From Bacteroidales bacterium (GTDB taxonomy: Bacteria > Bacteroidota > Bacteroidia > Bacteroidales > VadinHA17), in the NCBI GenBank assembly GCA_003162595.1, contig PMNJ01000345.1:1-44414 (forward strand): DNA of 44,414 bases. The letters run 5' to 3'. How positions within the stretch are numbered: the stretch's first letter is position 1; every line of letters begins with the position of its first letter. The notes under the pieces were generated by a model. That model was not told the DNA's origin and did not search any database. It saw only the letters and a list, made by a program, of their open reading frames with translations. The position numbers were made by a program, and so were the translations under genes. Shown in pieces: positions 1 to 43,936 of the stretch.

Positions 1-476
1 ATTTTTGAGACCCATGGCTGGTCGATCCAGCCGCCTGCCAGGCATAACCTGTAAGGGAACCTCATATCTCTCTTTGTTGCTGAACTTGAACGGTCAGGTA
101 AGCCGGGTTCAGGTATCCTTTCCAGTATCATATACTGAATCCCGTTCATTTTGCAGAGAGCTTCTTTATCGGGAGTATGTCCATCACTGTTTACGACAAA
201 AATGTCAGGTTTTAATCTGATTAAATCAGGTTCAAAATCAAGCATTCCTCTTCCGGAAGCAAGAAAAGCATCATAAACATACCGGATTGATTTTACTGTA
301 AATAATCTTTCCTCTTCTGAAAAAACGGGTCTTTTACCTTTCAGCAAAAGAAGGTTTTCATCTCTTCCTATACTAACATAGAGATCACCAAAAGTTGCTG
401 CTGTTTTAAAAAAGGCAATATGCCCGCCATGAAGCAGGTCATAACATCCGCTTACCAGAACTTTTTTGCGTTTCAT
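1..476 (-). CDS. Cytidylyltransferase-like (HxGH) nucleotidyltransferase domain fused to the start of a GHMP-kinase-like domain. Partial: the 3' end runs off the window.
   Basis: It is absent from the ORF track because it has no stop in the window. Reverse-complement translation from the ATG at 476-474 gives MKRKKVLVSGCYDLLHGGHIAFFKTAATFGDLYVSIGRDENLL..., a TagD-like CYDLLHGGH motif. After about 130 aa it reads ...RFPYRLCLAGGWIDQPWVS, resembling the R-x-x-LAGGW-x-D N-terminal motif of fucokinase-type GHMP kinases. The ATG lies 13 nt downstream of the epimerase stop on the same strand. Confidence 0.65.
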   Translation of the reverse strand, partial: MKRKKVLVSGCYDLLHGGHIAFFKTAATFGDLYVSIGRDENLLLLKGKRPVFSEEERLFTVKSIRYVYDAFLASGRGMLDFEPDLIRLKPDIFVVNSDGHTPDKEALCKMNGIQYMILERIPEPGLPDRSSSATKRDMRFPYRLCLAGGWIDQPWVSK

Positions 477-489
477 CTGACGAGATCTC

Positions 490-1491
490 TTATTTATTGA
501 ACTTGTTGTACCCTTTTTTTCTTCTACTCTCATCTACAACCTGTTCACTTATCCAGTTATACGTTTTTTTCATACCTTTCCTGAGAGGAATAGAAGGTTC
601 CCAACCGAGATATTTTTTAATAAGGGTGTTTTCCGAATTACGTCCTCTCACACCTTTGGGAGCTTTCAGATCATATATTCTGTTAAGTTTATAACCTGCT
701 ATATCTTCAACTATATCAACAAGCTGGTTAATTGATACCATTTCGCTGCTTCCAAGATTGAGTGGTTCCTCAATATTGCTGTACATAATATCCTGTATGC
801 CCTTAATGCAATCATCTATGTACATAAAGCTCCTGGTTTGAAGGCCATCGCCCCAGATCACTATCTCCTTTTTCCCGGTAATACCGGCTTCAATTACTTT
901 ACGGCTGATAGCTGCAGGTGCTTTTTCACGGCCACCGTCAAAAGTCCCGCATGGACCATAAACATTATGGAACCTGGCAACTCTTGTAGTAAGACCAAAA
1001 TCTTCCCTGAAATGACGGCACATACGCTCGCTGAATAATTTTTCCCATCCATAACCATCCTCTGCCAATGCCGGGTAAGCATCAGATTCTATCAGGCCCG
1101 GATTATGCGGATCGGTCTGCTTTTCACCATTATAAACACAGGCAGACGAGGCATAGAAAAACCTGTCTATACCGCAATCCTTTGAAGCAAGAAGAAGGTG
1201 TGTATTTATCAGAACGCTGATCATACATGCAGCCTTGTTATTTTCAATAAATCCCATCCCTCCCATATCTGCAGCCAGGTTAAAAACTTCATTGTACCCA
1301 TTTACAGCTTTGTAACAGTTTTCTCTCAGACGAAGATCCAGAACGAGGTTATCTGCATCACCAGAAACTTGATACCATTCGTTAAGAGGTTTTAAATCTA
1401 CTGCCCGGACACTGTTACCCTTTTTAATCAGTTCTTTTACAAGGTGTCCACCAATAAAACCTCCTGCACCTGCTACAACAATCTTTTTCAT
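490..1491 (-). CDS. gme: GDP-mannose 3,5-epimerase homologue (extended SDR, NAD-dependent epimerase)
   Basis: 333-aa ORF with an N-terminal Rossmann motif, VVAGAGGFIGGHL. It carries a run of blocks I recall from plant GME: FNLAADMGGMGFI, RFFYASSACVY, RFHNVYGPCGTFDGGREKAPAA, WGDGLQTRSF, GVRGRNSENTLIKKYLGWEP. Confidence 0.75.
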   Translation of the reverse strand: MKKIVVAGAGGFIGGHLVKELIKKGNSVRAVDLKPLNEWYQVSGDADNLVLDLRLRENCYKAVNGYNEVFNLAADMGGMGFIENNKAACMISVLINTHLLLASKDCGIDRFFYASSACVYNGEKQTDPHNPGLIESDAYPALAEDGYGWEKLFSERMCRHFREDFGLTTRVARFHNVYGPCGTFDGGREKAPAAISRKVIEAGITGKKEIVIWGDGLQTRSFMYIDDCIKGIQDIMYSNIEEPLNLGSSEMVSINQLVDIVEDIAGYKLNRIYDLKAPKGVRGRNSENTLIKKYLGWEPSIPLRKGMKKTYNWISEQVVDESRRKKGYNKFNK

Positions 1492-1690
1492 AATTTTTAA
1501 ATTTTAATACTTACTTACACGGTAACTTTCGCGATTACTTTAAAATATAAAAGTAGTTGTTTTTTCCACTCCGGCAAATTCTTTTAAAACATTTTTGACT
1601 GAATTTGACTTTTCTGAGAAATTCGATGTTTTCCTTCTATTTAAGTTTTACCCGAATTCAAAAAATCTTCCAATATTTTTCTTCTTTTCT
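1491..1690. repeat. Intergenic repeat family, copy A (longest, composite copy)
   Basis: 1491-1550 matches 32101-32160 at 57/60 ungapped positions. The core AACTTTCGCGATTACTTTAA (1524-1543) matches 15834-15853 at 18/20. 1639-1680 matches 7238-7280 with 39 identities in a 44-column alignment containing two 1-nt indels. CAAATTCTTTTAA (1575-1587) recurs at 32184-32196. Confidence 0.8.
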
Positions 1691-1867: not shown

Positions 1868-3643
1868 ATGTTAGAAGAAAATCTTATGATACCATCTATG
1901 GATATTAAAAATGGGGACAATTTTTTGAATTCACAAACAGATTCCGAAGGTCAAAGGGACCATCGAATGGGTGGAACAAGTCGACTGACACTCTCAGAAT
2001 TCGCTAAGCTTAAAGAGCATCCTGACCTTTCCGTTCTTATTGTGGGCGGTGGCATTAATGGAATCGGCCTCCTGCGAGAGCTAGCATTACAGGGAATAGA
2101 CACTTTACTGGTTGACAAGTCCGATTTCTGCTCTGAAACCAGTGCAGCCATGACCCGTGTGATTCATGGGGGTCTCCGGTATCTTGAAAACGCTGAATTG
2201 CGTCTTGTACGTGAGTCCCTGCGTGAGCGTAACCTGCTATTGCAGAACGCTCCACACTACGTCAAGCCATTGGCAACGACTATTCCAATTTTCAGTTTGA
2301 CTTCTGGCATTATTCCTACTATCCGTAATCTTCTGGGATGGAACGCACGGCCGGGCAACAGGGGAGCATTGCTAATAAAAGCCGGCCTTACGCTGTACGA
2401 TTTGCTTGCAGGAAAGAAGTCTCCTCTTCCCAGGCACAGGTTCCGCTTTCGTCGCACAATTTTTGCACTACGGCCGGCTCTAAACCCCGGAGTGATCTGT
2501 ACCGCAACTTACTACGACGCAAGAATCACTTATCCTGAGAGGTTGTGCCTCGAATTGATCCAAGACGCAGAAGCGTCATTTCCCGAGGCACGAGCACTGA
2601 ATTATGTTAGCCTCCAGAGCGCCATAGGGAAAACTGTGGTACTGCGCAATGAGCTATCCGGCGAAACAACTGAAGTTAGGCCCAGAATTGTCATTAACGC
2701 AACGGGCGCATGGATCGATTTCACCAACCATAGCCTGGGGCAGAAGTCCTGCTTTATAGGCGGAACTAAAGGTTCCCACATTGTACTCAACCACCCTGGA
2801 CTTGTGGAAGCAACAGGCGACGAAATGATCTACTTCGTAAACCTGGACGGACGTATCTGCATCTTCTACGCAGTCGGCAGTAAAATTATCGCCGGCGCAA
2901 CCGATATCCCTACTGAAGACCCTGATGCAGTCTGTGACGAGGCTGAGGTAGATTACATTCTTGAGGCTCTGCAGCAGGTATTCCCTTCAATCCAAGTTGA
3001 TAGGTCACATGTAGTTTATCGGTTCTGTGGCGTTCGGCCATTGCCTCAAAGTAATACCTTAACACCAGGCCAGGTCAGCCGTGACCATAGCTTTCCGGTA
3101 CTGATCCCAGGAAACGGAATTGATTTTCCAATCTACTCCCTTGTCGGCGGAAAATGGACAACCTTCCGTGCACTGGCTGAGCAAGTAGCAGACGAGATTT
3201 TACGAGTTCTTGGACACCCTCGAATCTGCGATTCCGCGAATATTCCCATCGGTGGAGGCAAAAATTACCCCCCTAAGATGAATGAGCGGGAGGGAATACC
3301 CCGCCATCGGTTTGTAGAGCTCATAGAACGCTATGGCTCAAGGGCAGAAAAAGTCGCTACCTATCTACAGGCGGGTCCTGATGCTCTGTTGACCTATCAT
3401 AGCGGTTATTCCCGGCGGGAGATTGAATTCATAGCACGATACGAGAGAGTAGCTCACCTTGACGACCTGATCCTGAGACGAACATTAATGGGTATACTGG
3501 GTGAAGTGAGCCTGGCTTTGCTGGAAGAACTGGCAGCAATTATTTCACCGGTGCTTGAATGGTCTCCGCAGGAATCGAAAGCCGAGGTTGTACGAACCGT
3601 GGAGCTTCTTCAGAGAGTTCACGGTGTGATGCTGGCCAGGTGA
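1868..3643 (+). CDS. FAD-dependent glycerol-3-phosphate dehydrogenase family protein (GlpD/EryB-like polyol-phosphate dehydrogenase)
   Basis: Collinear with remembered E. coli GlpD blocks: LIVGGGINGIGLL, TSAAMTRVIHGGLRYLENAELRLVRESLRERNLL, INATGAWIDF, GSHIVL, CGVRPL, GGKWTTFRALAE. The start is uncertain. The first ~25 codons are AT-rich, and the ATG at 1967 (MGGTSRL...) is an alternative. This is the only supported plus-strand gene. Confidence 0.85.
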   Translation: MLEENLMIPSMDIKNGDNFLNSQTDSEGQRDHRMGGTSRLTLSEFAKLKEHPDLSVLIVGGGINGIGLLRELALQGIDTLLVDKSDFCSETSAAMTRVIHGGLRYLENAELRLVRESLRERNLLLQNAPHYVKPLATTIPIFSLTSGIIPTIRNLLGWNARPGNRGALLIKAGLTLYDLLAGKKSPLPRHRFRFRRTIFALRPALNPGVICTATYYDARITYPERLCLELIQDAEASFPEARALNYVSLQSAIGKTVVLRNELSGETTEVRPRIVINATGAWIDFTNHSLGQKSCFIGGTKGSHIVLNHPGLVEATGDEMIYFVNLDGRICIFYAVGSKIIAGATDIPTEDPDAVCDEAEVDYILEALQQVFPSIQVDRSHVVYRFCGVRPLPQSNTLTPGQVSRDHSFPVLIPGNGIDFPIYSLVGGKWTTFRALAEQVADEILRVLGHPRICDSANIPIGGGKNYPPKMNEREGIPRHRFVELIERYGSRAEKVATYLQAGPDALLTYHSGYSRREIEFIARYERVAHLDDLILRRTLMGILGEVSLALLEELAAIISPVLEWSPQESKAEVVRTVELLQRVHGVMLAR

Positions 3644-5145
3644 TCGAAGTCACCCTTCAAGTGTTCGTAAATGTCCAGGAACACCTGATAGCTCAGCATA
3701 TACCTTTTATGATTCTCCTCGTTTGGTTCGAAGCGTCTGTCAAGATGCACCATTTCCGTGAGTGATTTACGGATATCCGGAAAGATTCCGGTGCCCATTC
3801 CCGCAAGGACAGCAGCTCCGAATGGTGAACCTACCGAGGTGCGAGGCAGCAATAAAGGAAGTCCCAACACATCCGCCTTAATCTGATTCCAAAGATCGCT
3901 GCGGCTGCAGCCGCCAACGCTCCTCACTTCCCTGACTTCTGCACCTGCTTTCATTGCCACCTCTATATTGTGGCGGAGCGCAAATGCCGTGCCTTCTAAA
4001 ATAGAACGCACAAGCGCAGCTTTGGAGGTGGCAAGCGACAAACCGAAAAACACCCCGCGGGCATTTGTATGCCATAGGGGTGATCGTTCCCCCATCATAT
4101 AAGGAAGAAAAATAACACCGTCGCTGCCAGGCTTAATACCTGCTGCTTGTCCAGTAAGCAGATCAAATGCATCAGTCTTATTCTCAGATGCTGTATGTAC
4201 TTCAATTTGTCCCAACTGATCCCGGAACCAGCGCAGGCATCCTCCCGATGCGACCATTGCTCCCAACAGCAAATGGATTCCAGACAAGGCGTGCGGCATG
4301 GCGATCAGTGCCGGCTCTGTCAGGCCTTTATCATTAGGCATGATGATCACCGTTGAAGTACCTGTCATTTCGACTGCGATACCTGGTTCAACCACTCCTG
4401 CCTCCAGAGCAGCCGAGGCACTGTCTACTGTCCCTGCCATAACAGGAGTACCGGTTTTTAACCCGGTTGCCTCCGACGCCTCCGCAGTTACCCTACCCTG
4501 AATCAAATGTGCCGCCATAACCTCAGGGAATTGCGAAGTCTTTATTCCGCAGATATTGCAAAGAGCTTCAGACCATTCATCCTTCTGATAATCGCGCAAT
4601 TGCATAAGCGCAGCATTAGAGGGATCCAGGGTAAGCCGTCCTGTAAGCCGGTAATTAATATAGCTGTTTACTTGGACAAACTGCCAGGTTTTCTTTAAAA
4701 CTTCAGGTTCATTATTCTGAAGCCATAGAAGCCGGGCCGCAAGATAAAAAGCATCCGGACGGTTACCTGTTATCCTGTAGATTTGATCTGCTCCCAGCAT
4801 CTCCGTCAGCCGGATAGTCTCAGCTTCCGCACGACGGTCCATCCAGATCATCGCGGGACGCAAAGGTTTTCCGGAATGATCCAGTGCCAGAAGAGCAGGT
4901 GCCTGGCAACTTACTGCAAGTCCAATAACACTTTCTGCACTGTCTGGAACCTTTGAAAGCGCCTCTTTTACGGCCTTGCAGGTTCCATGCCACCAATCCT
5001 CAGGATCCTGCTCAACCCAGGCAGGTCGGATGTGGTGCAGTGGATATTCCGCCTGCCCATCTGCAAGAAGGTTTCCTCTTTTGTCAATAAGAACAGCTTT
5101 GACGGAACTGGTTCCTACATCGATACCAAGCAATAGTGATCCCAT
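3619..5145 (-). CDS. FGGY-family carbohydrate kinase (xylulokinase-like)
   Basis: The N-terminus reads MGSLLLGIDVGTSSVKAVLIDKRGNLL...PAWVEQDPEDWW, typical of XylB-like FGGY kinases. I trimmed the start from the track ORF (5292) to the ATG at 5145. The extension overlaps the transporter gene and precedes the conserved GIDxGT phosphate-1 motif. Confidence 0.85.
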   Translation of the reverse strand: MGSLLLGIDVGTSSVKAVLIDKRGNLLADGQAEYPLHHIRPAWVEQDPEDWWHGTCKAVKEALSKVPDSAESVIGLAVSCQAPALLALDHSGKPLRPAMIWMDRRAEAETIRLTEMLGADQIYRITGNRPDAFYLAARLLWLQNNEPEVLKKTWQFVQVNSYINYRLTGRLTLDPSNAALMQLRDYQKDEWSEALCNICGIKTSQFPEVMAAHLIQGRVTAEASEATGLKTGTPVMAGTVDSASAALEAGVVEPGIAVEMTGTSTVIIMPNDKGLTEPALIAMPHALSGIHLLLGAMVASGGCLRWFRDQLGQIEVHTASENKTDAFDLLTGQAAGIKPGSDGVIFLPYMMGERSPLWHTNARGVFFGLSLATSKAALVRSILEGTAFALRHNIEVAMKAGAEVREVRSVGGCSRSDLWNQIKADVLGLPLLLPRTSVGSPFGAAVLAGMGTGIFPDIRKSLTEMVHLDRRFEPNEENHKRYMLSYQVFLDIYEHLKGDFDHLASITP

Positions 5146-5159
5146 ACAACAATTAATGG

Positions 5160-6200
5160 TTATTGGATAGCGTAGAGAGGGGCGATTGAAACCAGTATCA
5201 GACCCGCCAGATAAAACAGGAACATGAGAACAAGCAATCGGGTTACACGTGGTCCGCCTCCTGCGAACTCCTTCCAGGCAAGAACGCCCCAAAGGGCTCC
5301 AACCATGGTTGAGCCTTGCCCGATAGCGTAGCTGATCGCCGGTCCAATCTGTAAAGCCTTAGGTGCGCTGGCAGCGACGAAGTTTGACAAAGAACCGGTA
5401 ATCCAGATCAGGCCACCTAAAATCCCAAGAAAGTGAACCCAAGCATTGCCTTTCAGATAATCTTTGAAAGTCAACCGTGAGCCCTCAATCGGGTATCGCA
5501 TAAAATAAAGATTAAGAAAGAAAACAGAAACCAATACACCCAGACTAAAAATGAATCCAACAGCATAAGGACCCAATCCGCTTTCTCCCTTCTTACCGAT
5601 TTCGACAAGCGGGTAGAAAGTACCCATCAATAAACCTCCAATTATAGCAAGCTTAATCCCCTTCCAGGTGGAGGCTTTCCTGGCGATGACATCTGCCTTA
5701 TCGCCAGTATCACTTTTACTGGCTGCAAGTGCCCGGTAAGCGATGGCATCCACGATGATAGCAGCCACAACCAGTGCAACACCGGCAAACAGTAAATAAG
5801 GATTTCCCTGCGGGTTAACAATGTAATTCCAGATAACCCCAACTACCAGGGCAAGTCCAACACCTATGGGAAACCCCACACCCATCCCAGCTACAGCAAT
5901 GGCGCCCACTACAAGGATGTTCGAGAGATTAAAAATGACACCACCTGCGAAACCGCAAATTATATTAATAGTTCCCGCGTGTGAAAGATCATTAACAAAG
6001 GTGAGTCCGCCGGCTCCCCATGTACCGAATGTCAATCCGGCAAGAAGTGCACCCAGCGCCACTCCGATTGAGTAGTCATAGTAGAGGAGTTCAAAACGCC
6101 AGCCTTTAGCAAACTTTAGCACATTAGTCCATGATCCCCAGCAGATCATGGTCAGAATAGTGAGCATCAAAACCATCAGATAAGTGTGTGGAAGAGTCAT
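5160..6200 (-). CDS. Polytopic sugar transporter of the DMT superfamily (GRP / RhaT-like, about 10 TM)
   Basis: 346 aa, almost entirely hydrophobic segments. It has an N-terminal CWGSW motif and a central charged loop (ASKSDTGDKADVIARKAS) splitting two 5-TM halves, as in GRP-type glucose/ribose porters. Substrate unknown. Confidence 0.65.
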   Translation of the reverse strand: MTLPHTYLMVLMLTILTMICWGSWTNVLKFAKGWRFELLYYDYSIGVALGALLAGLTFGTWGAGGLTFVNDLSHAGTINIICGFAGGVIFNLSNILVVGAIAVAGMGVGFPIGVGLALVVGVIWNYIVNPQGNPYLLFAGVALVVAAIIVDAIAYRALAASKSDTGDKADVIARKASTWKGIKLAIIGGLLMGTFYPLVEIGKKGESGLGPYAVGFIFSLGVLVSVFFLNLYFMRYPIEGSRLTFKDYLKGNAWVHFLGILGGLIWITGSLSNFVAASAPKALQIGPAISYAIGQGSTMVGALWGVLAWKEFAGGGPRVTRLLVLMFLFYLAGLILVSIAPLYAIQ

Positions 6201-7308: not shown

Positions 7309-8715
7309 TTAAATGCGAAATTGTTTGTAAGGACCTTTGTATTTTATAACAATTATATTATCAATTGAATCAATTGGTTGCTCGGGTAGATAGATCATCA
7401 AACCCTGAGAATGAACATCTACTTTTAATGGTTTCTTTTCTTTATCCGCAAGTAAATAAGCATTATTAAATTCATTGACAAAATCATTCAGGTAGAGCAT
7501 ATTATCCCCCGGCCACCGGAACAGGTGCAGATACAAAGTATTGGGTTTTGCTGTAATCCCGCTGATACTGTTATTCCATCTTACCGATGGTCCACCGCTT
7601 GTTGTGCCATATATAGCTTCACCATTTACAGAGAGCCAATTTCCTACTTTTTTCAAAATTGCCTGTGCTTTTTCGGGCATTACTCCCTCGCTTGTAGGGC
7701 CGACATTTAAAAGATAATTGCCACCTTTTGATGCTATGTCTACCAGATTAGAGATTACCTCATCTGCACTTTTAAAAGTAGTATCGGTTTTATTATATCC
7801 CCAGCTTCCGTTCAAAGTCATGCAAACTTCAAATGCAGTGCTTTGAGAACCGCCAGGTATTTCCTGTTCCGGAGTCCCATAATCTGCTCCGATGCCTCCC
7901 ATCCGGTTGTTAATAAGGCATTTGGGTTGCCATTTATGGATGGAATCAACCAAAGCTAAAGCCATTTCACGGTTCTGCAATTCATCCGGATCAAATGCCG
8001 GACCAGACCAATCCCACCAGATAATACCAATATCACCATAGTTTGTAAGAAGTTCCTTTACCTGACCTTCGAGATATGCGAAATACTTTTTATAGTCGGC
8101 ATCGCGATTGGGGAACCCATGAAATCCTTCTGGATACTGTTTGGTATGGTAAGTATATTTTACCGGAAACTGAGGATGGTGCCAATCCTTTACTGAATAA
8201 TAAAAGCATAATTTCAATCCCTGTTTTCTGCATTCTTCAGCAAGCGCTTTCATTGGATCCTTCCCATATGGTGTGGCATCTACAATATTATAATTCGTCA
8301 GTTTTGAATCGAACATGCAAAAGCCTTCATGGTGTTTGGCGGTTATGACTATATATTTCATACCTGCTTGTTTTGCCATTGACACCCATTCTTTAGCAAT
8401 AAACCTGACCGGATTAAATTGTTTTGCAAGTTTTTCATATTCCTCACCGGGAATATTGGCACTATATTGTATCCATTCCCCGTAATTTTTTCTCCCATTC
8501 CATTCGCCGGCCGGTACGGAATAAAGTCCCCAATGGATAAACAGACCAAATTTTGCTTCCTGGAACCATTCTAATTTCTTTGACGAATCAATGGCTGAAT
8601 CATTCTTGGCTGATTCGTTTTTTTTAAGGTTACAGGATAATAAACTTACTGAAAGCCAAACACTGATTATAACCAGTTTTAAATATGTTTTATAATTCAT
8701 ATGTTCTATTGTCAT
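7309..8715 (-). CDS. GH29 alpha-L-fucosidase, probable lipoprotein
   Basis: LEWFQEAKFGLFIHWGLYSVPAGEW, AKHHEGFCMFDS and IIWWDW blocks are typical of GH29. The signal peptide ends in LLSC (lipobox-like). An alternative start is the ATG at 8700. Confidence 0.9.
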   Translation of the reverse strand: MTIEHMNYKTYLKLVIISVWLSVSLLSCNLKKNESAKNDSAIDSSKKLEWFQEAKFGLFIHWGLYSVPAGEWNGRKNYGEWIQYSANIPGEEYEKLAKQFNPVRFIAKEWVSMAKQAGMKYIVITAKHHEGFCMFDSKLTNYNIVDATPYGKDPMKALAEECRKQGLKLCFYYSVKDWHHPQFPVKYTYHTKQYPEGFHGFPNRDADYKKYFAYLEGQVKELLTNYGDIGIIWWDWSGPAFDPDELQNREMALALVDSIHKWQPKCLINNRMGGIGADYGTPEQEIPGGSQSTAFEVCMTLNGSWGYNKTDTTFKSADEVISNLVDIASKGGNYLLNVGPTSEGVMPEKAQAILKKVGNWLSVNGEAIYGTTSGGPSVRWNNSISGITAKPNTLYLHLFRWPGDNMLYLNDFVNEFNNAYLLADKEKKPLKVDVHSQGLMIYLPEQPIDSIDNIIVIKYKGPYKQFRI

Positions 8716-14114: not shown

Positions 14115-15743
14115 TCATTTCCCCGATATTTTTAATACATAAGCATATTGACAAGGTTGCGAAGCAGGTAACTGAACTGTAAGACCCTTCTCATTTTGAA
14201 CCCATTTTAATAAATCTTTTGAACCAAGCATTTGAATATCTCTTATTTCTCCAAACCAGAGCGCTTTTCCTTTATGCAATGATTTTATTGTGACCTCTTT
14301 CCCGGGCCAGGCCATCAGAATGGCATAAATACTTTTGCCCTTGGTTGTAAACCTGATGTCTTCAGCAGTGTATTCTTTTGGCCGGTTGCTTTGATTTCCT
14401 CTTACTTCCTGTACCTTAGTGGGTCCTTCTCCCATAATTTCCCATGGCCGTGTCCCGTGAATGGCCTCGCTGTTTACGGCCATCCATTGCGCCATTTCAT
14501 CAAGGAACTTATAGTAAGCATCAACGATGGTACCATCGGCACGAAGGTTAATATTTAGCAACAGATTCCCATTTTTACTTACTATATCCACCAGTTGTAA
14601 TACTACATCCTTTGTAAGGATGGGGCCTCTTCCCGAATATATGAGATACATGGGATTGATATAGAAAAATCCATCAAGGCCAGTATCAGTTTGCCAGGGA
14701 TATTTTCTTGGTATATCGCTCTGTGCGTTTTCAAGATCCAAAACAAGTGCTTTCTGCTGTTCTTCCGAACGCGATCCTTTAACATTAATTACAATCTCGT
14801 TTTTGCCGTTGTTCCATTTTTGACTTTGATTATAATAATAAGAGGCCATATCCAACCTGCGGAAAGGAAGACCGCCATCGTAATAAATCAGGTCAGGGTG
14901 ATAGTTGTCTATCAGGTCGACCATGCGGTTTATAAGAATCTGTTTAAAAAGTGAATCGGGTTGATCACCGTCATCACCAGGGAAAGGGCCTGAATAGGCT
15001 CCCTGCTTAGATCCTTTATGAGGCTGCCCGTATAAATCCCGCGGATCATACCCTTCCCACCATTTGCCTTTACCATCGGCCTTTGTCATCCATCCATCAT
15101 ATGGAACTCCTTTCAATGGTCCTGTTGTATCGGCCATGCGGGAAATCTCCCAGTATCTCCAGGTGCCTTCCCCATGATTTGAGACACCGAATTTCATGTT
15201 ATTATGTTTTGCAGCATTCTGCCATTCCTTCACTATATCCCTTTTAGGGCCCATATTCACTACATTCCATGGCTGATATTTGGAGTTCCACATATCGAAG
15301 TTATCGTGATGCATAGCCATGGACACAAAATATCGTGCGCCTGCCTTGTAGTAGAGTTTCATTAAAGCTTCGGGATCCCATTTAGCGCACGTGAATAAAG
15401 GAATTAAATCCTTAAACCCAAATTCAGAAGGGTGACCATATTTAATCAGGTGATAAGAGTAAGCGGGTATCAAATCAGGGAACGCCCAATTATTATCCTG
15501 TATATACAGTCGTCTGGGAAACCAGTCCCCGTACTCTGCCACACTGTTCGGACCCCAATGGGCCCAGATTCCAAACTTGGCATCGCGGAACCAATCGGGG
15601 CAATCGTATTGTTGGGAAAGCGATTCCCATGTCGGTTCAAAAGGTCCGGTTTTCGGCAGAAGCGGCTGTGCGGAACTGACAATGGACATTACCACAAAAA
15701 GCATACTGCATAGGCTAATTCGTGTAACAACATTCATTTTCAT
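14115..15743 (-). CDS. GH29 alpha-L-fucosidase (second, divergent paralogue)
   Basis: DWFRDAKFGIWAHWGPNSVAEYGDW, MAMHHDNFDMWNS and LIYYDGG blocks. SPI-type signal peptide (IVSSAQP). Confidence 0.9.
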   Translation of the reverse strand: MKMNVVTRISLCSMLFVVMSIVSSAQPLLPKTGPFEPTWESLSQQYDCPDWFRDAKFGIWAHWGPNSVAEYGDWFPRRLYIQDNNWAFPDLIPAYSYHLIKYGHPSEFGFKDLIPLFTCAKWDPEALMKLYYKAGARYFVSMAMHHDNFDMWNSKYQPWNVVNMGPKRDIVKEWQNAAKHNNMKFGVSNHGEGTWRYWEISRMADTTGPLKGVPYDGWMTKADGKGKWWEGYDPRDLYGQPHKGSKQGAYSGPFPGDDGDQPDSLFKQILINRMVDLIDNYHPDLIYYDGGLPFRRLDMASYYYNQSQKWNNGKNEIVINVKGSRSEEQQKALVLDLENAQSDIPRKYPWQTDTGLDGFFYINPMYLIYSGRGPILTKDVVLQLVDIVSKNGNLLLNINLRADGTIVDAYYKFLDEMAQWMAVNSEAIHGTRPWEIMGEGPTKVQEVRGNQSNRPKEYTAEDIRFTTKGKSIYAILMAWPGKEVTIKSLHKGKALWFGEIRDIQMLGSKDLLKWVQNEKGLTVQLPASQPCQYAYVLKISGK

Positions 15744-24371: not shown

Positions 24372-26156
24372 CTAATTCCATCCCGGGTTTTGAACAAGCT
24401 TTGTATTAAGCGTAAGCTGATCTAATGGAAGTGGATAAAGATACAGCTTTTCATCCCATGTGCGCGATGCAACTGTATATGGCTGCAGCAGTTTTTTTGT
24501 TTTACCGTCCCAGTCAGTTATGGTCAACAGTGGTCTTCCGGAAAACTGATCTAATCCATTATTGTAATATTTATACCTAGCTATAACACCAGAATCGACC
24601 ACAAGGCCTACCATTGTTTTAGGATTCTCAATGAGTTTACCGGCATGCCAACGAACAATATCATCCCAGCGAAAACCTTCAAAAGCAAGCTCTATCCTGC
24701 GCTCACGCCTTAATTCATATATAAGAGGGGATACAACATATCCGTACCGTGGCTGGCCATTTATAAGCGCATTCGGATCGGTTGGGGGATTTAGTGTTAA
24801 ACGACCCATTGTAAAATTTCCGGGTTCATCCAGTCTGGCACGAAGCAAATTAATGGAATTGTCCAGATCGCCCTGTGTAATGGTGCCCAGTTCAGCTTTT
24901 GCCTCAGCAAATGTTAACAGAACTTCGGCATACCTGAAAATAAACCAGTCATCAGTTGTCGCATTAGCATCATTCTCTTTTACTATAGGATCTCTGAATT
25001 TAGCCATAAGATATCCTGTCGGACATATACTCCCAGTAACCGGAGTCACTGGGTACGTAACAAGATCAGCTCCGTTCATAAACATTGGCAGGAATTTATT
25101 ATCAATCATGTTCCTTAATCGGGGATCCCTATGAGCCATTTCCATCCACACAGAGTCATCGCCAAGATATAACGGGCTAAGTGAAATTGGCAAACCATCT
25201 GTGCAAAGGAATGACTCGATGAAATCTTTGGTTACCCCATATCCTGCTCCAAATCCACTTCCTGATTCTCTGTTTGTTACAATACCAAGTATATAAATGC
25301 GGGGAAGCACACACTCAGGATTGGATGTCAAATCTTCCTGTATAAATTGTTGCTTATAATACAAGGGATAACCCTGAAAGGAATAAGGACCAGTTCCTTT
25401 CACAATATTATAACCTCCGTTAGTCATTATGTCTTGAGCAGCAGAAACTGCTAATGTCAAATAAGGTTCCCATCCGCTGATATTTCTATATTTCAGATAG
25501 GTTCCCTCGTAAAGACAAACACGCGCCAACATCTGCAATGCGGCATAATGGTGCAATCTTCCAAGATCTACCTTTGCAGGGATATGAAGATGTGAAACGG
25601 CAAATTGAAGATCGGTAATAATACTATCTACCACCGTCTTCATTGGAGTACGGGCAGCGAATAAAATAGAATTGTCCGTTACATTAAGATTTTTGTCTAT
25701 CCAGGGAACATCTCCGAAGGTTTTAACTTTATTGAAATATTCATTAGCCCTGAAGAACCTGATTTCTCCGATATATTGATTAATATCTGCCGTATCACCA
25801 ACAACCGTCTTATAATGACTTAAAGCGTAATTCAGATTTCTGATATTTGACCAGTCGGTGTAACTCCAGCCGCCACCAGATGGAGGCACTGCCATTGCAT
25901 CAAAAAGAAGTGGATCTGGTGTACTTGCGAGAAGGTTATCGCTGGGAGAGTCGTAAAAAACCTGGTATGTGGAATTAGCAGCTGGCCCTGGAAGAGTGGT
26001 ATAAAAACCGTTAGCAAACAACTTCATATCAGCTGGAGTTTTCCAGAAGTTTAAATCGGTAATTGAATCCTGAGGAATAGTATCGAGTACTTTTTTACAA
26101 GAAGAAATAGCGACTAGTATTCCTGCTATAATAATTATATAATGTTTAATTTTCAT
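24372..26156 (-). CDS. susD: SusD/RagB-family nutrient-binding outer-membrane lipoprotein
   Basis: 594 aa with a lipoprotein signal, MKIKHYIIIIAGILVAISSCKK. It lies directly downstream of susC (20-nt gap). The C-terminal ...RRERRIELAFEGFRWDDIVRW... block is typical of SusD-like proteins. Confidence 0.9.
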   Translation of the reverse strand: MKIKHYIIIIAGILVAISSCKKVLDTIPQDSITDLNFWKTPADMKLFANGFYTTLPGPAANSTYQVFYDSPSDNLLASTPDPLLFDAMAVPPSGGGWSYTDWSNIRNLNYALSHYKTVVGDTADINQYIGEIRFFRANEYFNKVKTFGDVPWIDKNLNVTDNSILFAARTPMKTVVDSIITDLQFAVSHLHIPAKVDLGRLHHYAALQMLARVCLYEGTYLKYRNISGWEPYLTLAVSAAQDIMTNGGYNIVKGTGPYSFQGYPLYYKQQFIQEDLTSNPECVLPRIYILGIVTNRESGSGFGAGYGVTKDFIESFLCTDGLPISLSPLYLGDDSVWMEMAHRDPRLRNMIDNKFLPMFMNGADLVTYPVTPVTGSICPTGYLMAKFRDPIVKENDANATTDDWFIFRYAEVLLTFAEAKAELGTITQGDLDNSINLLRARLDEPGNFTMGRLTLNPPTDPNALINGQPRYGYVVSPLIYELRRERRIELAFEGFRWDDIVRWHAGKLIENPKTMVGLVVDSGVIARYKYYNNGLDQFSGRPLLTITDWDGKTKKLLQPYTVASRTWDEKLYLYPLPLDQLTLNTKLVQNPGWN

Positions 26157-29653: not shown

Positions 29654-29803
29654 AGATTTGAATGGATTAAGTTTACTTAAGTTTTTTAACAGAAATCTAG
29701 TTCTTAGTCTGGCGGGATTGTGTGGTAGCACTATCCCGCTTTTTTCATAATTAGCTTTGTTTCATAAGCATATCATTTTATTGGTTAGGATCATGTTCGT
29801 ATT

Positions 29804-30892: not shown

Positions 30893-30915
30893 TTCTTAAA
30901 AATATTTTAGGCAAA

Positions 30916-30946
30916 AAGCACTTCCGGTCCTATACCGGAAGCGCTT
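30916..30946 (-). promoter_or_regulatory. Stable hairpin with a U-rich tail in the sigma/anti-sigma spacer (candidate attenuator or terminator)
   Basis: The minus-strand RNA reads AAGCGCUUCCGGU-AUAGG-ACCGGAAGUGCUU followed by UUUGCC. The stem is 13 bp including one G-U pair, which would be an A-C mismatch on the opposite strand. It lies 24-54 nt upstream of the fecR-like ATG (30892). Confidence 0.35.
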
Positions 30947-31134
30947 CATTACCCTTAACTAACCTGACAACTAACCAAACATAATCCCAAAAACCCAATC
31001 TGTATCCGTATAAAAGTAGTATTGACTTCAACTGATTAGCCGGGCTTTTCAATAGTAAGACGTAGTAAAAGGTAATAACCACTACCTGGAAAATAAATTT
31101 ATATAAATTAATTTTATTACTTTGAATATCAATA

Positions 31135-31785: not shown

Positions 31786-32100
31786 CAACTCTTTATTCAA
31801 ATCCAAATATAATATACTAAGCGCTTTAAGATTAAATTTTGATAAATTACATGCTAACAGTGGCTCCTTTTTTCTTGCATTATCTTGCATCTATCTGAAT
31901 TTTGCCATTCGGATATTTTTTTGCAATCATTATAATCCCAAGCTAATAAATTTTTGTTACATATGGAAAATATAAATGATTCAAAAAAGTGATGAAATCT
32001 CTTCTTATTTAATATACCTTCGAATAAAAACCATTCTTTTAGGTAAGGGCTTAATTTCCTTCAGCATATGTCGTATATTCGTGCCTTTATCAGTAAAAAA

Positions 32101-32220
32101 TAATTTTTAAATTTTAATATTTACTTACACGGTAACTTTCGCGATTACTTTAAAGCATAAAAGTAATATTATTCTTACTATAACAAATTCTTTTAAGAAA
32201 TAATTTGATTTTTCAAAGAA
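32101..32220. repeat. Intergenic repeat family, copy D (orphan copy of the region that precedes the gme-like gene)
   Basis: 32101-32160 versus 1491-1550: 57/60 identical. Collinear weaker similarity continues through CAAATTCTTTTAA (32184-32196), and TAATTTGATTTTTCAAAGAA (32201-32220) versus GAATTTGACTTTTCTGAGAA (1601-1620) is 16/20 identical. It abuts the isomerase stop codon at 32221. Confidence 0.8.
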
Positions 32221-41521: not shown

Positions 41522-43936
41522 TTACTTAATATTCTGCCACTCTATTTCCATCTTTTGTCCTTTCTTCAGAATAACTTCCTTTTGTTTGTTGCCACATATC
41601 AGTAAGGTCTTCCCATCTGCTTTTGCATAAATAACAAGGTTTTTCAATTTTTTTTGTGCCCAATCCATTGAAATCTCGTAGCCTCCCCTGGCACATATCC
41701 CTTTTACTGAACCACTTTCCCATGCGTCAGGAAGCGCCGGAAGAAGTCGTATTTCATTTTCTGACGATTGAAGCAGCATTTCAACCACCGCGGCGGAGCC
41801 GCCAAAATTACCATCAATCTGAAAGGGCGGACAAGCGTCAAATAAATTGGCATATGTGCCGCCTCCTTCTGAATAGTACGGATCGTCGCTATTAACTGCG
41901 ACATATTTCAGCAATTCACGATACATTTTATAAGCATGGTTTCCATCACCAAGCCGTGCCCATAGATTTATACGCCAGCCTTTGGACCAACCGGTAGTCT
42001 GATCACCTTTTATTTCCAGGGTTTTCCGGCAGGCATTTGCCAGTTCGGGTGTTTGTACCAGGTCTATCGAATGGCCGGGATAAAGACCAAAGAGGTGAGA
42101 CTGATGACGATGTTGCGGGTCTTCATCTTTCCAATCATAATACCATTCCTGCAGATTCCCGTTCTTACCTATCATATAAGGATGTAAACGGGCCAGAGCA
42201 TCTTCAAGTTTTGTTCTGAAATCTACATCAGTATTTAAGATACGGGATGCTCTGATTGTCTGGGCAAAACATTCACGTATCATTGCCAGATCTGCTGTTC
42301 CACCATATAAAGTTGCCCCATGATATCCCTTATCTGTAATGTACCTGTTCTCCGGTGAAGTTGACGGAGAGGTGATTAATTTACCGTCTTTGTCTTCTAC
42401 AAGCCAATCGAGGCAGAACTGAGCAGCGCCCTTCATGAGAGGATATCCACTATTTTTAAGAAAATCAATGTCTTTTGTGAAAATATAGTGTTCCCATAAA
42501 TTGGTGCTCAGCCAGGTTCCTCCCATGTTCCAGTTGGCCCAGGAAGGATCTCCTGATCCGAAATTACCAACAGGGTTGCTCATGGCCCAGATGTCGGAAT
42601 TGTGGCAGAGTACCCATCCATTGCAGCCATAGAAAGTTTGTGCCGTTATCGCTCCGGTTACCGATGCATTCTTAATAAAAGTCAGCAATGGCCGGTACAT
42701 CTCTGAAAGATTGCTGTTCTCAGACAGCCAGTAGTTCTCCTCTAAATTTATGTTTGTGGTATAGTTACAGCTCCATGGCGGACGAAGGTATGGGTTCCAC
42801 ATTCCCTGCAGATTAGCCGGCACTCCCGGAGTACGTGAACTGCTGATAAGCAAGTACCGGCCATACTGGAAATAAAGTATCTCCAGGGTTTTATCTTCTT
42901 TCCCTTCCGAATACCGCTTTAGCCTTTCATTTGTTGGTAAATCGGGAGCATCAGTTTTTCCAAGTGTCAGACTTACGCGGTTAAAATATTTCTGGTAATC
43001 GGCCAGATGGGATGATTTCAACTGCTGAAACGATTTTGGAAAAGCTTTTCCCATTTGCCCTTTGGCAAGACTTTCATCATTCAGACCCTCTGATGCCGGG
43101 TCCTTATCAAAGCCGTTAAAGCTGGTAGCTATTGATACATAAACCAATGCTTCAGTAGCATCTTTAACTCCAAGTGTACTGTCTGAAGTAACAATTCTTC
43201 CGTCGCTGTTTTTAATTTTAAAGAGGGCCGTAAAGCGTGTTCCCTTTTTTTCATTAAAAACTATTGCATCAGGAATATCTCCCAAATAGTTTGGAACTGC
43301 ATGCATGGGCGCATATCCTTCTGCTTTTAAATCAGAATTTTCAAGTGATATTTTATATTTCAAAAGGCTGTTGAACCTGATACTGAAATTTAAAGCTGCC
43401 TTTTTCGAGCTTGCAAGCCTGATGATCATTACCTGATCGGGATAAGAAATGAAGTATTCGCGAGTATATGTAATACCATTAATATCATACTTCACTTTAG
43501 AAACTGCATCCCCAATATTCAACTCACGGTAATAATCCTTTGGTTCACCATTTTGTTTCATATCAATAAATAAAGTGCCCAGCGGACAATATGATTCTGA
43601 AAATTTACCCTGTAATTTGTGCTGCAACTGATCGGCCAGTTTATAATCGTCATTTTTCAGGGCCTCCCTTATGGCTGGCAGGTTTTTATATGCTTCCGGA
43701 TTCATATTTGCGTCTACCGGACCACCTGACCATAATGTTATATCGTTCAGATAAATTTTATCGGAGTTTATACCTCCAAATACCGATGCACCCATTTTAC
43801 CATTCCCCAGCACCAGACTTTCTTCAAAATACCGGGCAGGCTGGTCGTACCAGAGGGTGTTTCCCGATTGCGCAAGAATATTGGTTGTTTCCGATATAAT
43901 CAGCGACAGAGTAATAACTGCAATTGCTTTTTTCAT
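41522..43936 (-). CDS. GH95 alpha-L-fucosidase / alpha-L-galactosidase family protein
   Basis: The N-terminal [28 protein letters not shown]...ITLWSGGP and the catalytic-domain [24 protein letters not shown] are classical GH95 blocks. 804 aa with a signal peptide. Confidence 0.9.

Follow-up and report, generated by a model that had tools for sequence, protein, structure and literature searches.

Introduction

GDP-mannose 3,5-epimerases (GME) described so far are assigned to biosynthesis, leading to ascorbate, cell wall, LPS or antibiotics. L-Galactose is found in plant pectin (RG-II), some xyloglucans and red-algal galactans. One bacterial GDP-Man 3,5-epimerase whose activity was verified biochemically is 50.5% identical to plant GME, and the published equilibrium of the reaction, 80:15:5, favours GDP-Man (PMC6678494). 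A bifunctional enzyme, FKP of Bacteroides fragilis, converts L-fucose and, weakly, L-galactose to the corresponding GDP-sugar (for L-galactose to GDP-L-galactose: PMC11982464, PMC6678494); the residues that bind L-fucose and catalyse its phosphorylation are R592, W599, D601, T602, Q761 and D762 (PMC11982464). At the level of the hydrolases, BpGH29 has been described as an exo-alpha-L-galactosidase with Asp327 as ligand of O6 (PMC9774334). The bacterial routes of L-galactose catabolism found in the literature searched are oxidative and proceed through L-galactonate and D-tagaturonate to end in cleavage of KDG (PMC12632266). Within that literature, whose coverage was incomplete, we found no bacterial L-galactokinase, no Leloir-like, phosphorylative or GDP-dependent route for L-galactose, and no GDP-L-galactose in PULs.

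Results

A GME-like gene and a fusion gene in a plant-glycan PUL

The window, i.e. the whole stretch of 44,414 nt that was analysed, derives from a peat-soil Bacteroidales bacterium, and the gene pair studied here is located inside a plant-glycan-degrading locus (Table 1). SusC/SusD, glycoside hydrolases of families GH2, GH29, GH31, GH35, GH78 and GH95 and a dedicated regulator are all present in the window, so that this region is a PUL and the GH29/GH95 surroundings pointed out in an earlier note on this DNA are real. Neither sulfatases nor GH16/GH86 porphyranases are present here, and the bacterium lives in freshwater peat or fen. The module occurs in about 300 species-level genomes, and all carriers found are uncultured MAGs. 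Synteny was counted in 80 species loci among the matches listed, out of ~300 carrier genomes.

Table 1. Coordinates of features in the window.
Feature	Position	Strand	Remarks
Fusion gene, first 158 codons	1..476	(-)	ATG at 476; remainder beyond window start
Spacer between GME and fusion genes, 13 nt	477..489	(-)	from sequence
SDR/GME gene, 333 aa, ATG start	490..1491	(-)	ORF; phmmer against PDB
Putative GME operon promoter/leader, AT-rich	1492..1640	(-)	promoter assigned from sequence
28-nt element GTAATCGCGAAAGTTACCGTGTAAGTAA, candidate operator	1511..1538	(-)	20-47 nt upstream of GME ATG
RhaM-family sugar mutarotase, 135 aa	6682..7089	(-)	Pfam PF05336; = L002:4403-4810; context gene
GH29 alpha-L-fucosidase, ordinary fucosidase type	7309..8715	(-)	Asn at BpGH29 Asp327 position; context gene
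GH29 with WQTDT motif	14115..15743	(-)	Asp at O6-binding position of BpGH29; context gene
SusD	24372-26156
SusC	26177-29731
ECF sigma/anti-sigma	29804-31722
Duplicate of ~130 nt of GME leader	32080-32230
28-nt element, second exact copy	32121..32148	(-)	inside GME-leader copy
GH95 (alpha-L-fucosidase/alpha-L-galactosidase family)	41522..43936	(-)	PUL context gene

The SDR belongs to the GME family

The 333-aa SDR had been proposed to be a homologue of plant GME, and this was borne out by a phmmer search against the PDB, in which the Arabidopsis GME structures 2c59 and 8sg0 were matched at E~1e-94 (2c59: 8e-95, 321 bits). The next families were GDP-fucose synthase (6e-28, 101 bits) and GalE/UXS (5e-26), so that the match to GME far exceeds what chance would give. 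AtGME and the SDR are 49% identical, a value comparable with that of the verified bacterial enzyme. Pfam assigns Epimerase (1.7e-36) and GDP_Man_Dehyd; a GME model does not exist in NCBIfam, where the best match is Fcl at 119 bits versus a cutoff of 500. The NAD-binding motif GxxGxxG is present as GAGGFIGG (residues 7-14) and aligns with that of AtGME. In the alignment to AtGME all eight fingerprint residues, as listed in PMC8787198, are kept: S116, C118, Y147, K151, N176, K190, R220 and R284 correspond to S143, C145, Y174, K178, N203, K217, R243 and R306. Among these are the catalytic triad Ser143/Tyr174/Lys178 (S116, Y147, K151) and the acid-base pair Cys145/Lys217 (C118, K190), together with the equivalents of Arg306, which acidifies the Cys (R284), of Arg243, which contacts the diphosphate (R220), and of Asn203 (N176). 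A Lys instead of a His in the acid-base pair separates GME from GDP-fucose synthase. By all three measures, E value, identity and fingerprint, the protein groups with GME and not with GalE or dehydratases, which the earlier note had named as the point to check. Judged by its sequence, the SDR is a member of the GME family (extended SDR, CEP1), with predicted enzyme activity.

The fusion protein combines an HxGH nucleotidyltransferase with a shortened GHMP kinase

As had been read from the sequence, a second gene follows thirteen nucleotides downstream of the SDR gene, a distance too short for a promoter or terminator of its own, from which we infer co-transcription of both genes. Its full-length product was read from contig L002, whose sequence matches the window at 100% identity along 11,491 nt. 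The protein comprises 378 aa, an HxGH nucleotidyltransferase (NT) domain (~1-135) being followed by a shortened GHMP kinase (~240 aa, from ~140). The visible 158 codons contain LLHGGH at residues 14-19 and CLAGGWIDQP at residues 145-154, the motifs behind the earlier assignment of an N-terminal HxGH nucleotidyltransferase and a fucokinase-like LAGGWxD site; both assignments stand.

The NT domain exceeds the cutoffs of Pfam PF01467 CTP_transf_like (44.6 bits, cutoff 21) and NCBIfam TIGR00125 (43.8 bits versus 27.7), and its motifs H16-G-G-H19 and R129-SSS-ATK135 do not vary within the clade. On these matches it is a member of the cytidylyltransferase-like (HxGH) nucleotidyltransferase family, with predicted activity. 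The best NCBIfam match is rfaE_dom_II, the HldE adenylyltransferase domain (TIGR02199), at 45-48 bits versus an equivalog cutoff of 181.5; score, kinase type and gene context all speak against membership in HldE/RfaE domain II. A heptose (HldE-like) pathway was considered and rejected, given the fucokinase-type Trp/Asp sugar site and a score of 59 bits of the SDR against heptose 6-epimerase (cutoff 275). No gmhA or gmhB was found near the module, either on the locus contigs or among the recurrent neighbours in 80 loci. By fold (Foldseek on the AF2 model), the NT domain resembles TagD, ECT, Fom1 and HldC. These nearest solved relatives use CTP (ECT, TagD, Fom1) or ATP (HldC), and no GTP-using enzyme was found among the solved relatives, so that formation of GDP-L-galactose by this domain would be without precedent. 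Cluster look-up of ten NCBI-sourced homologues returned no functional name beyond 'cytidyltransferase-like protein'.

The C-terminal part proved to be homologous to GHMP kinases once the full length was available, as the earlier note had called for. A profile of close homologues alone matched only the NT domain in the PDB, plus a non-significant mevalonate kinase (E 1.4), and no Pfam GHMP model matched the isolated C-terminal 238 aa even at E<=1. By the kinase family profile, the closest solved relative is FKP of B. fragilis, through its fucokinase domain (E 1.8e-14), followed by HddA (2.4e-7) and WcbL (3e-4), and the relatives P0128, P0158 and P0206 pass PF08544 (GHMP_kinases_C). An AF2 model of the fusion reached pLDDT 92 with a 49-sequence alignment that included homologues of 30-55% identity, versus pLDDT 40 with 19 sequences at ~80% identity. 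With this model, Foldseek recovered TagD/HldC-type nucleotidyltransferases and the kinases WcbL, FKP and HddA, the latter three at probability 1.00 and with TM ~0.5 over the whole two-domain model.

Motif I, P141-Y-R143-LCLAGG-W150-I-D152-Q-P, aligns with FKP 589-602, R143 and D152 being at least 90% conserved in 49 diverse homologues. Between motif I and the P-loop (motif II), ~85 residues are missing from the domain, whose ATP site is predicted. Motif II occurs as the variant R178-SGLATSS-R186 (versus PxGSGLGSS) with nearly invariant G180, S184 and R186 and aligns with the HddA P-loop region in the match to 3k85 (profile positions 38-232). The G-x-Q-D motif is G223-S-Q225-D226, and motif III (GAGGGG) is S353-GCGGGY359. 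Five of the six FKP residues for L-fucose binding and catalysis are kept: R592, W599, D601, Q761 and D762 correspond to R143, W150, D152, Q225 and D226, all invariant in the clade, while T602 is replaced by an equally invariant Gln153. Since FKP-type residues fit either sugar, sequence cannot decide between L-galactose and L-fucose.

Synteny places the gene pair in a degradative context

GME is located directly upstream of the fusion gene in 76/80 loci. In 47 of these loci a GH29 gene (GH29b) follows, in 33 a LacI regulator, and the recurrent neighbours comprise GH29, LacI, GDSL esterase, GH27, GH31, GH51 and a fucP-type MFS permease. Genes for glycosyltransferases, flippase/polymerase or export were found neither among these neighbours nor in the window or on L002. 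The pair thus lies outside a capsule/LPS cluster, a possibility raised when the genes were first noticed. On the 100%-identical contig, the operon goes on with fucP (415 bits, cutoff 280), the RhaM mutarotase, a ManC guanylyltransferase domain, LacI and GH29. ManC is part of the operon in only 4/80 loci, and a 99.97%-identical strain (L004) has none; the exit step of the pathway proposed below would therefore depend on unlinked genes.

More distant homologues (39-45% identity) adjoin genes for transketolase subunits, SDRs and GT2 glycosyltransferases, and glycosyltransferases are found as fusion partners of some mini-kinase domains (P0180, P0218). RhaM, NT and kinase also occur together in a natural triple fusion, which adjoins an MFS gene and a GH29 gene and has no adjacent GME. 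The distant homologues and the triple fusion suggest general sugar activation as the function of the whole family, and salvage for glycosylation is a possible role for the module described here, too.

The syntenic GH29 resembles an exo-alpha-L-galactosidase

The best solved relative of GH29b is BpGH29 of the B. plebeius porphyran PUL (PDB 7LJJ/7SNK), matched at E~1e-97, with the next match at 5e-61. The O6-binding Asp327 is kept in 43/43 GH29b orthologues, and GH29b also has His68, Trp335 and Asn366. Compared to BpGH29, Glu80 is replaced by Asp and Val141 by Met; L-galactosidase activity is predicted.

The GME leader shares an element with the PUL regulatory genes

A Bacteroidetes-like box of the TAnnTTTG type, TATATTTT, is located in the GME leader just upstream of a conserved 28-nt element. 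The 17-nt core of this element occurs at the same position with up to 4 mismatches in 26/72 related loci, with diverging flanks. Exact matches to the 28 nt number two, versus 0 expected by chance. The second lies in a duplicated part of the leader, ~400 nt upstream of the ECF-sigma/anti-sigma/SusC/SusD genes and with no ORF after it. No Rfam family was found in the GME leader or the 28-nt element. When the element was compared with a classic LacI palindrome, symmetry was confined to short GTAA/TTAC arms and a TCGCGA core, so that its assignment as an operator stays tentative. The operon is probably controlled by a LacI-family repressor, and the shared element provides a handle on possible co-regulation of the PUL and a cytoplasmic sugar pathway.

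Discussion

From the enzyme families, conserved catalytic residues, conserved synteny and degradative context we infer a sugar, a nucleotide, a direction of flux and a mode of regulation for the module. The earlier note had suggested that released L-galactose or L-fucose is salvaged into an NDP-sugar and handed to GME; this idea is supported, and the chemistry it predicts fits the synteny well. In our main reading, held at a probability of roughly 0.55, GME and the fusion protein form the core of a module by which L-galactose released by GH29/GH95, possibly also L-fucose, would be converted via nucleotide sugars into mannose metabolism. A retaining GH29, an alpha-L-galactosidase of the BpGH29 type, would free alpha-L-galactose, which would be imported by the FucP-type permease and converted to the beta-anomer by the RhaM-type mutarotase. 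The shortened GHMP kinase would then phosphorylate O1, as does the fucokinase domain of FKP, to yield beta-L-galactose-1-phosphate, and the fused HxGH domain would form an NDP-sugar, presumably GDP-L-galactose. Epimerisation at C3 and C5 by GME would give GDP-D-mannose, from which ManC, encoded in this operon or as a housekeeping copy, could release Man-1-P in reverse with PPi under regeneration of GTP, and Man-1-P would be converted to Fru-6-P. Overall, alpha-L-Gal would pass through beta-L-Gal, L-Gal-1-P and GDP-L-Gal to GDP-Man (and on to Man-1-P) at a net cost of one ATP and redox-neutrally, which is a Leloir/Isselbacher-type logic for an L-sugar. The operonic linkage of GME to kinase/NT, permease, mutarotase, LacI and GH29 implies the reverse direction for GME, from L-galactose to mannose. 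Further points in favour of the main reading are the triple fusion beside an MFS and a GH29 gene and the copy of the leader element ahead of the PUL sigma and SusCD genes. The evidence leans towards L-galactose rather than L-fucose as substrate. We rejected L-fucose as the principal substrate of the module as a whole, since 3,5-epimerisation of GDP-L-Fuc would presumably lead to GDP-D-rhamnose, which has no known catabolic exit. The wider claim, that Bacteroidales (anaerobic; with some Ignavibacteria/Calditrichota) possess a new redox-neutral 'L-Leloir' route from L-Gal via beta-L-Gal-1-P, GDP-L-Gal, GDP-D-Man and Man-1-P to Fru-6-P with a guanylyl-specific NT domain, is tentative and, in our estimate, falls slightly short of even odds.

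The same genes might instead serve an FKP-like salvage, in which scavenged L-fucose and/or L-galactose would be activated to GDP-sugars for the cell's own surface glycans; GME would balance the GDP-Man and GDP-L-Gal pools or supply GDP-L-Gal, and central metabolism would not be fed. The closest characterised relative of the kinase domain is indeed a salvage enzyme, ManC is seldom linked, and both the triple fusion without GME and the association of distant homologues and mini-kinases with glycosyltransferases would suit this role. However, glycosyltransferase, flippase and polymerase genes are missing from the recurrent neighbours of the GME-linked clade (80 loci), and a LacI-type regulator, exo-glycosidases, permease and mutarotases coupled to the module are typical of a catabolic operon. 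The tight adjacency of GME and the fusion gene would be needless for pure L-fucose salvage. Since the equilibrium of GME lies strongly towards GDP-Man, L-galactose activated beside it would mostly be drained to GDP-Man, and on balance we regard salvage for surface glycans as unlikely. A capsule or LPS pair that makes GDP-L-Gal from GDP-Man for O-antigen and lies next to the PUL by accident would agree with published proposals for bacterial GME, which are biosynthetic and concern LPS and antibiotics (PMC6678494, PMC8787198). This reading was already disfavoured and has very little probability left: conservation of the synteny with GH29 and LacI extends over dozens of species, the recurrent neighbours in 80 loci are degradative with zero glycosyltransferases, the leader element is shared with the PUL regulatory and SusCD genes, and de novo synthesis from GDP-Man would need neither a free-sugar kinase nor a permease nor mutarotases.

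The architecture might also perform other chemistry, yielding a CDP- or ADP-sugar or acting on a similar sugar such as D-arabinose, L-gulose or a 6-substituted L-galactose, with the SDR shifted to match. Every solved relative of the NT domain transfers a cytidylyl or adenylyl group, with an HldE adenylyltransferase domain as best NCBIfam match, FKP T602 is replaced by Gln153, and D-arabinose is also accepted by FKP (PMC11982464). Such a shift is rather improbable given that the SDR resembles plant GME as closely as the verified bacterial enzyme does (49% and 50.5%; PMC6678494) and has retained the Arg that binds the diphosphate and every catalytic residue, that a ManC-type guanylyltransferase is encoded in the same operon of this organism, and that the GH29 found in synteny belongs to the L-galactosidase type.

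If conversion of L-galactose to mannose metabolism by the module is correct, GME would gain a catabolic function, and a large protein family now annotated only as 'cytidyltransferase-like' would be assigned a function. Among proteins of its fold, the NT domain would be the first that is guanylyl-specific, and the fusion would be a new compact FKP analogue of HxGH nucleotidyltransferase and shortened GHMP kinase that is covered by no Pfam model. Fermentative Bacteroidales dominate carbon turnover in peat and fen, and a redox-neutral route at the cost of one ATP would suit them. GDP-L-Gal is a costly nucleotide sugar, as is GDP-L-Fuc; a 378-aa one-pot enzyme for their formation and a soluble bacterial GME could be useful for L-sugar and glycoside biocatalysis.

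Comparison with known systems

Plant GME and the SDR are both extended SDRs with GxxGxxG motif, S/Y/K triad, Cys/Lys pair, acidifying Arg, diphosphate Arg and orange-wall Asn in common, but the SDR (333 versus 377 aa) is devoid of the N- and C-terminal extensions of the plant enzyme. Unlike known GMEs, it is operonic with a sugar kinase/NT, permease, mutarotase, LacI and an exo-L-galactosidase-like GH29. With FKP, the fusion protein shares the layout of one polypeptide with N-terminal NT and C-terminal GHMP anomeric kinase, and the kinases are homologous, with R, W, D, Q and D in common. The earlier description as an Fkp-style enzyme built from different parts is thus correct for the type of nucleotidyltransferase, whereas the supposed difference in order does not hold, since B. 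fragilis FKP has the same arrangement (PMC11982464). The NT domain of the fusion is an HxGH/CTP_transf_like Rossmann fold of ~135 aa, that of FKP an NTP_transferase with left-handed beta-helix of ~500 aa; the kinases comprise ~240 and ~430 aa and the whole proteins 378 and 949 aa, respectively. With PF01467 in place of NTP_transferase/beta-helix, the fusion is an analogue of FKP and not a member of its family.

HldE/RfaE and HldC provide a precedent for an HxGH nucleotidyltransferase that acts on a sugar-1-phosphate and is fused to a kinase of the same pathway. In HldE, however, the kinase is of the PfkB/ribokinase type and N-terminal, while here it is of the GHMP type and C-terminal. The heptose kinases WcbL and HddA are nearest to it in fold by Foldseek. 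The oxidative L-galactose pathways of Bacteroides vulgatus (Bvu0219-0222), of the same phylum as the carrier described here, and of Luteolibacter LG18 (lgu genes), a member of Verrucomicrobiota, start from the same presumed substrate but, unlike the proposed route, involve neither a free-sugar kinase nor a nucleotide sugar. The logic of the Leloir/Isselbacher pathway (GalM, GalK, GalT or UDP-sugar pyrophosphorylase, GalE) would be matched step by step, from mutarotase through GHMP anomeric kinase, nucleotidyl transfer and SDR epimerase to a hexose-1-phosphate, with one ATP net and redox neutrality in both. The proposed route would differ in using an L-sugar, GDP (presumed) in place of UDP, 3,5- in place of 4-epimerisation, a RhaM mutarotase and a kinase fused to its nucleotidyltransferase, and the likeness to the Leloir pathway is a functional analogy rather than family membership.

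Gene pair at the contig start

A homologue of GME (GDP-mannose 3,5-epimerase) closely followed by a nucleotidyltransferase (NT) gene had been described in the earlier note, and ORF and Pfam analysis recovered both genes with the described spacing on the minus strand. The visible part of the second gene product carries the motifs LLHGGH (residues 14-19) and CLAGGWIDQP (residues 145-154), and its reading frame matches CTP_transf_like with 44.6 bits (cutoff 21). In public records this fusion protein is named only 'cytidyltransferase-like' or 'adenylyltransferase/cytidyltransferase family' protein.

In a search of all PDB sequences, the first gene product, an SDR protein, matched best to Arabidopsis GME (AtGME) entries and one further GME, at E 8e-95 to 1e-93 (approximately 320 bits). 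GDP-fucose synthase was the next family (6e-28), and GalE and UXS followed at approximately 5e-26, placing the protein with GME rather than with GalE or GDP-fucose synthase. GMEs use a Lys base and an Arg where GDP-fucose synthase has His and Lys. The SDR is 49% identical to AtGME over 315 columns, the same level as the GME of Methylacidiphilum (50.5%), the sole biochemically characterised bacterial GME (PMC6678494). All eight GME fingerprint residues (AtGME S143, C145, Y174, K178, N203, K217, R243 and R306; PMC8787198) are kept in the alignment, as S116, C118, Y147, K151, N176, K190, R220 and R284, respectively. By family assignment from sequence, the SDR is a GME.

The 17-nt core of a 28-nt element in the GME leader is conserved at this position in 26 of 72 loci, while the flanks diverge. 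Its second copy, 30 kb away, lies within a duplicate of the promoter/leader located approximately 400 nt upstream of ECF-sigma/anti-sigma/SusC/SusD genes, with an isomerase-like gene on the other flank. The duplicate stops exactly where the GME ATG would stand, and no ORF follows. No Rfam family matched the GME leader. The element may represent a shared operator or promoter tying the cytoplasmic module to the polysaccharide utilisation locus (PUL); alternatively, the duplicate could be a remnant of a rearrangement.

Features of the gene pair, its leader and the surrounding locus
Feature	Position	Strand	Basis or remark
Fusion ORF, 158 codons visible	1-476	-	Translation; start at 476, leaves window at its start
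Spacer SDR/fusion, 13 nt	477-489	-	Sequence
SDR (GME) ORF, 333 aa	490-1491	-	ORF call; Pfam Epimerase/GDP_Man_Dehyd
GME promoter/leader	1492-1640
28-nt element GTAATCGCGAAAGTTACCGTGTAAGTAA	1511-1538	-	20-47 nt upstream of GME ATG
Glycerol-3-phosphate-dehydrogenase-like flavoprotein	1868-3643	+	Divergent; within high-G+C segment
High-G+C segment	2000-5300		~50% G+C vs ~38% around
Xylulokinase-like FGGY kinase	3619-5145	-	TIGR01312, 381 bits, just above cutoff
RhaT/GlcU-like transporter	5160-6200		~48% G+C; adjoins high-G+C segment
GH29, ordinary-fucosidase-like	7309-8715	-	Comparison; Asn at BpGH29 Asp327 position
PUL protein, 595 aa	8775-10562	-	No Pfam or NCBIfam match
PUL protein, 1117 aa	10599-13952	-	DUF5107 + TPR repeats
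Second PUL GH29, 'WQTDT' motif	14115-15743	-	Comparison; Asp at BpGH29 O6-binding position
PUL protein, 972 aa	21252-24170	-	Only a sub-threshold xylose-isomerase-like TIM-barrel match
Leader duplicate, ~130 nt	32080-32230
Second exact copy of 28-nt element	32121-32148	-	Exact match search; none expected by chance

A predicted GHMP-type kinase domain in the fusion protein

Longer contigs were found by exact-sequence look-up of the SDR. One of these, L002 (ENA ERZ19984763), spans 127 kb; it agrees with the window at 100% identity across 11,491 nt and was therefore taken as its continuation. The full-length fusion encoded there has 378 aa. Residues ~1-135 comprise an HxGH nucleotidyltransferase in which H16-G-G-H19 and R129-SSS-ATK135 are invariant among homologues. 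No Pfam model matched residues ~140-378, even at E<=1. This C-domain contains the GHMP-like motifs RSGLATSS, GSQD and SGCGGGY. Among 1.8 billion representatives searched, 222 relatives were obtained at E<=1e-30, including stand-alone ~240-aa C-domains and other fusions, and three relatives pass Pfam GHMP_kinases_C. A C-domain profile of 18 diverse sequences matched the fucokinase domain of FKP, the bifunctional kinase/pyrophosphorylase of B. fragilis, at E 1.8e-14, with lower matches to HddA (2.4e-7), WcbL (3e-4) and mevalonate kinase (6e-4). In Foldseek searches with an AlphaFold model (pLDDT 92, 49-sequence alignment), the N-domain matched TagD, ECT, Fom1 and HldC and the C-domain WcbL, FKP and HddA, all with probability 1.00. 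The full-length partner thus does carry the GHMP-type kinase domain that had been suspected from its visible part, a predicted kinase with a putative ATP site.

In FKP, R592, W599, D601, T602, Q761 and D762 bind L-fucose and catalyse phosphoryl transfer according to crystallography and mutagenesis (PMC11982464). They align with R143, W150, D152, Q153, Q225 and D226 of the fusion; five of the six are identical (T602 being replaced by Q153), and the clade shows no variation at any of the six positions. Compared with the FKP kinase, the fusion lacks a stretch of approximately 85 residues separating motif I from the P-loop, indicating a shortened ('mini') GHMP kinase. The assumption that the domain order differs from that of FKP was wrong, since in both proteins the NT precedes the kinase; that of different parts holds for the NT fold, which is unrelated to that of FKP.

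Mini GHMP kinases form a broad family without a matching Pfam model. Among relatives P0122, P0133, P0158, P0178, P0180 and P0218 and at loci L090 and L092, the ~240-aa domain also occurs alone or joined to two NT domains, to a PNP_UDP_1 phosphorylase and NT, to GT2, or to a TcdA/TcdB-like glycosyltransferase. Relative P0125 (593 aa, L087:8001-9782) is a natural triple fusion of RhaM mutarotase, HxGH NT and mini GHMP kinase; its gene is followed by MFS permease and GH29 genes, and no GME is adjacent.

Operon and conservation

Further along the same strand of L002, separated by short gaps, come genes for a permease that exceeds the fucP equivalog cutoff (415 against 280 bits), for a mutarotase of the RhaM family, for a mannose-1-phosphate guanylyltransferase domain of the ManC type, for a regulator of the LacI family and for a GH29. 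In L004, from a strain 99.97% identical over 11.5 kb, the order is GME, fusion, LacI, GH29, and the fucP-rhaM-manC cassette (L002:12153-15178), located between fusion and LacI, is absent. This difference is a strain-level indel inside the operon.

A scan with one genome per species detected the fusion gene in 302 genomes, and neighbours were counted in the best 80 of these loci. Of these 80 carriers, nearly all are Bacteroidales/Rikenellaceae that are uncultured and come from fens, peat, soils and lake sediment, and a few belong to Melioribacter/Ignavibacteria and Calditrichaceae. GME lies directly upstream of the fusion in 76 of the 80 and the L002-type GH29 directly downstream in 47, while LacI (33/80) and fucP-type MFS (12/80) genes occur nearby. 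No glycosyltransferase turned up among the recurrent neighbours in these 80 loci, whose other recurrent genes encode a GDSL esterase, a TIM protein resembling xylose isomerase, an FAD oxidoreductase, amidohydrolases, GH27, GH31 and GH51. A fusion homologue of 55% identity has a GME orthologue (69% identical) approximately 1 kb away.

In 17 of the 80 loci (L058:653-1732, L048 and others), an Amidohydro_2 protein is encoded approximately 3.7 kb upstream of the fusion. In the work of Hobbs et al. this is reported to be the family of the L-fucono/L-galactono-1,5-lactonases, a hint that in some genomes the GDP-sugar module may be accompanied by an oxidative branch for L-Fuc/L-Gal. Fusion copies of ~71% identity are present in MAGs that bear the labels delta proteobacterium, Chloroflexota and Bathyarchaeota (L063/L064 on contig CAVPSX010000021.1, L067, L068); on one contig there seems to be an additional GME copy, oppositely oriented and no more than ~10 kb away. 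Such copies could stem from contamination during binning, from horizontal transfer or from an inverted duplication.

GH29 enzymes and the PUL

The surrounding 44 kb form a Bacteroidota PUL with SusC/SusD, an ECF sigma/anti-sigma pair and GH2, two GH29, GH31, GH35, GH78 and GH95, together with three large proteins that largely lack an assignment, in agreement with the GH29/GH95-bearing locus noted earlier. The closest solved structure to the syntenic, L002-type GH29 is BpGH29 (E~1e-97; next match 5e-61), the exo-alpha-L-galactosidase from the porphyran PUL of B. plebeius. PDB entries 7SNK and 7LJJ are both this enzyme (PMC12316285), whose Asp327 fixes O6 of L-galactose (PMC9774334); Asp327 is kept in 43 of 43 orthologues of the syntenic GH29. 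By the same residue, the second GH29 of the PUL may be a further alpha-L-galactosidase. The high-G+C segment could have arrived by horizontal transfer as a cassette serving another sugar or a polyol.

A putative route for L-galactose

GH29 enzymes act with retention and set free the alpha-anomer, and the syntenic enzyme would release L-Gal in this form. FKP-type kinases take the beta-anomer and yield the beta-L-sugar-1-phosphate (PMC11982464), which would explain the mutarotase: it would turn the alpha- into the beta-anomer, and the kinase domain would form beta-L-Gal-1-phosphate. The NT domain would convert this product to GDP-L-Gal, GTP being the presumed nucleotide. HldE is a precedent for an HxGH nucleotidyltransferase acting on a sugar-1-phosphate and fused to the pathway kinase. 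GME would link GDP-L-Gal to GDP-Man, which is favoured at its equilibrium of 80:15:5 (PMC6678494). From GDP-Man and PPi, ManC would then form Man-1-P, with regeneration of GTP; this exit step is rarely linked to the fusion (4 of the best 80 of 302 loci), a caveat on the route. The analysis shows the family identities, intact catalytic motifs, synteny and degradative context; sugar, nucleotide, flux direction and role of the regulator we infer. L-fucose is less likely as main substrate of the complete module, because no catabolic exit is known for GDP-D-rhamnose, its 3,5-epimerisation product.

The main rival is FKP-like salvage for glycosylation in this clade. Distant fusion homologues (39-45% identity) adjoin genes for GT2 glycosyltransferases, SDRs and split-transketolase subunits, and some mini-kinases are fused to glycosyltransferases, suggesting that the family at large is a generic activator of sugars to NDP-sugars. 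With the degradative neighbours of the close homologues also in view, we consider salvage unlikely but a serious competitor. Use of a different nucleotide or sugar appears more doubtful still; it is favoured by the solved relatives of the NT domain, among which there is no GTP user. The degradative neighbours and the lack of recurrent glycosyltransferases in the best 80 of 302 loci all but rule out an ordinary LPS/capsule cluster.

In the literature searched, no bacterial L-galactokinase or GDP-sugar route for L-Gal use was described. The bacterial L-Gal catabolism described in 2025 follows oxidative routes (PMC12632266), and bacterial GMEs have been discussed solely as biosynthetic enzymes (PMC6678494, PMC8787198). 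An FKP analogue on a different NT fold and a GME in a probable catabolic setting would be new here. The proposed route would spend one ATP without a redox step and would suit fermenters. From mutarotase through kinase, NT and GME to ManC, the chain would resemble the Leloir/Isselbacher pathway in its logic, with L-galactose as substrate.
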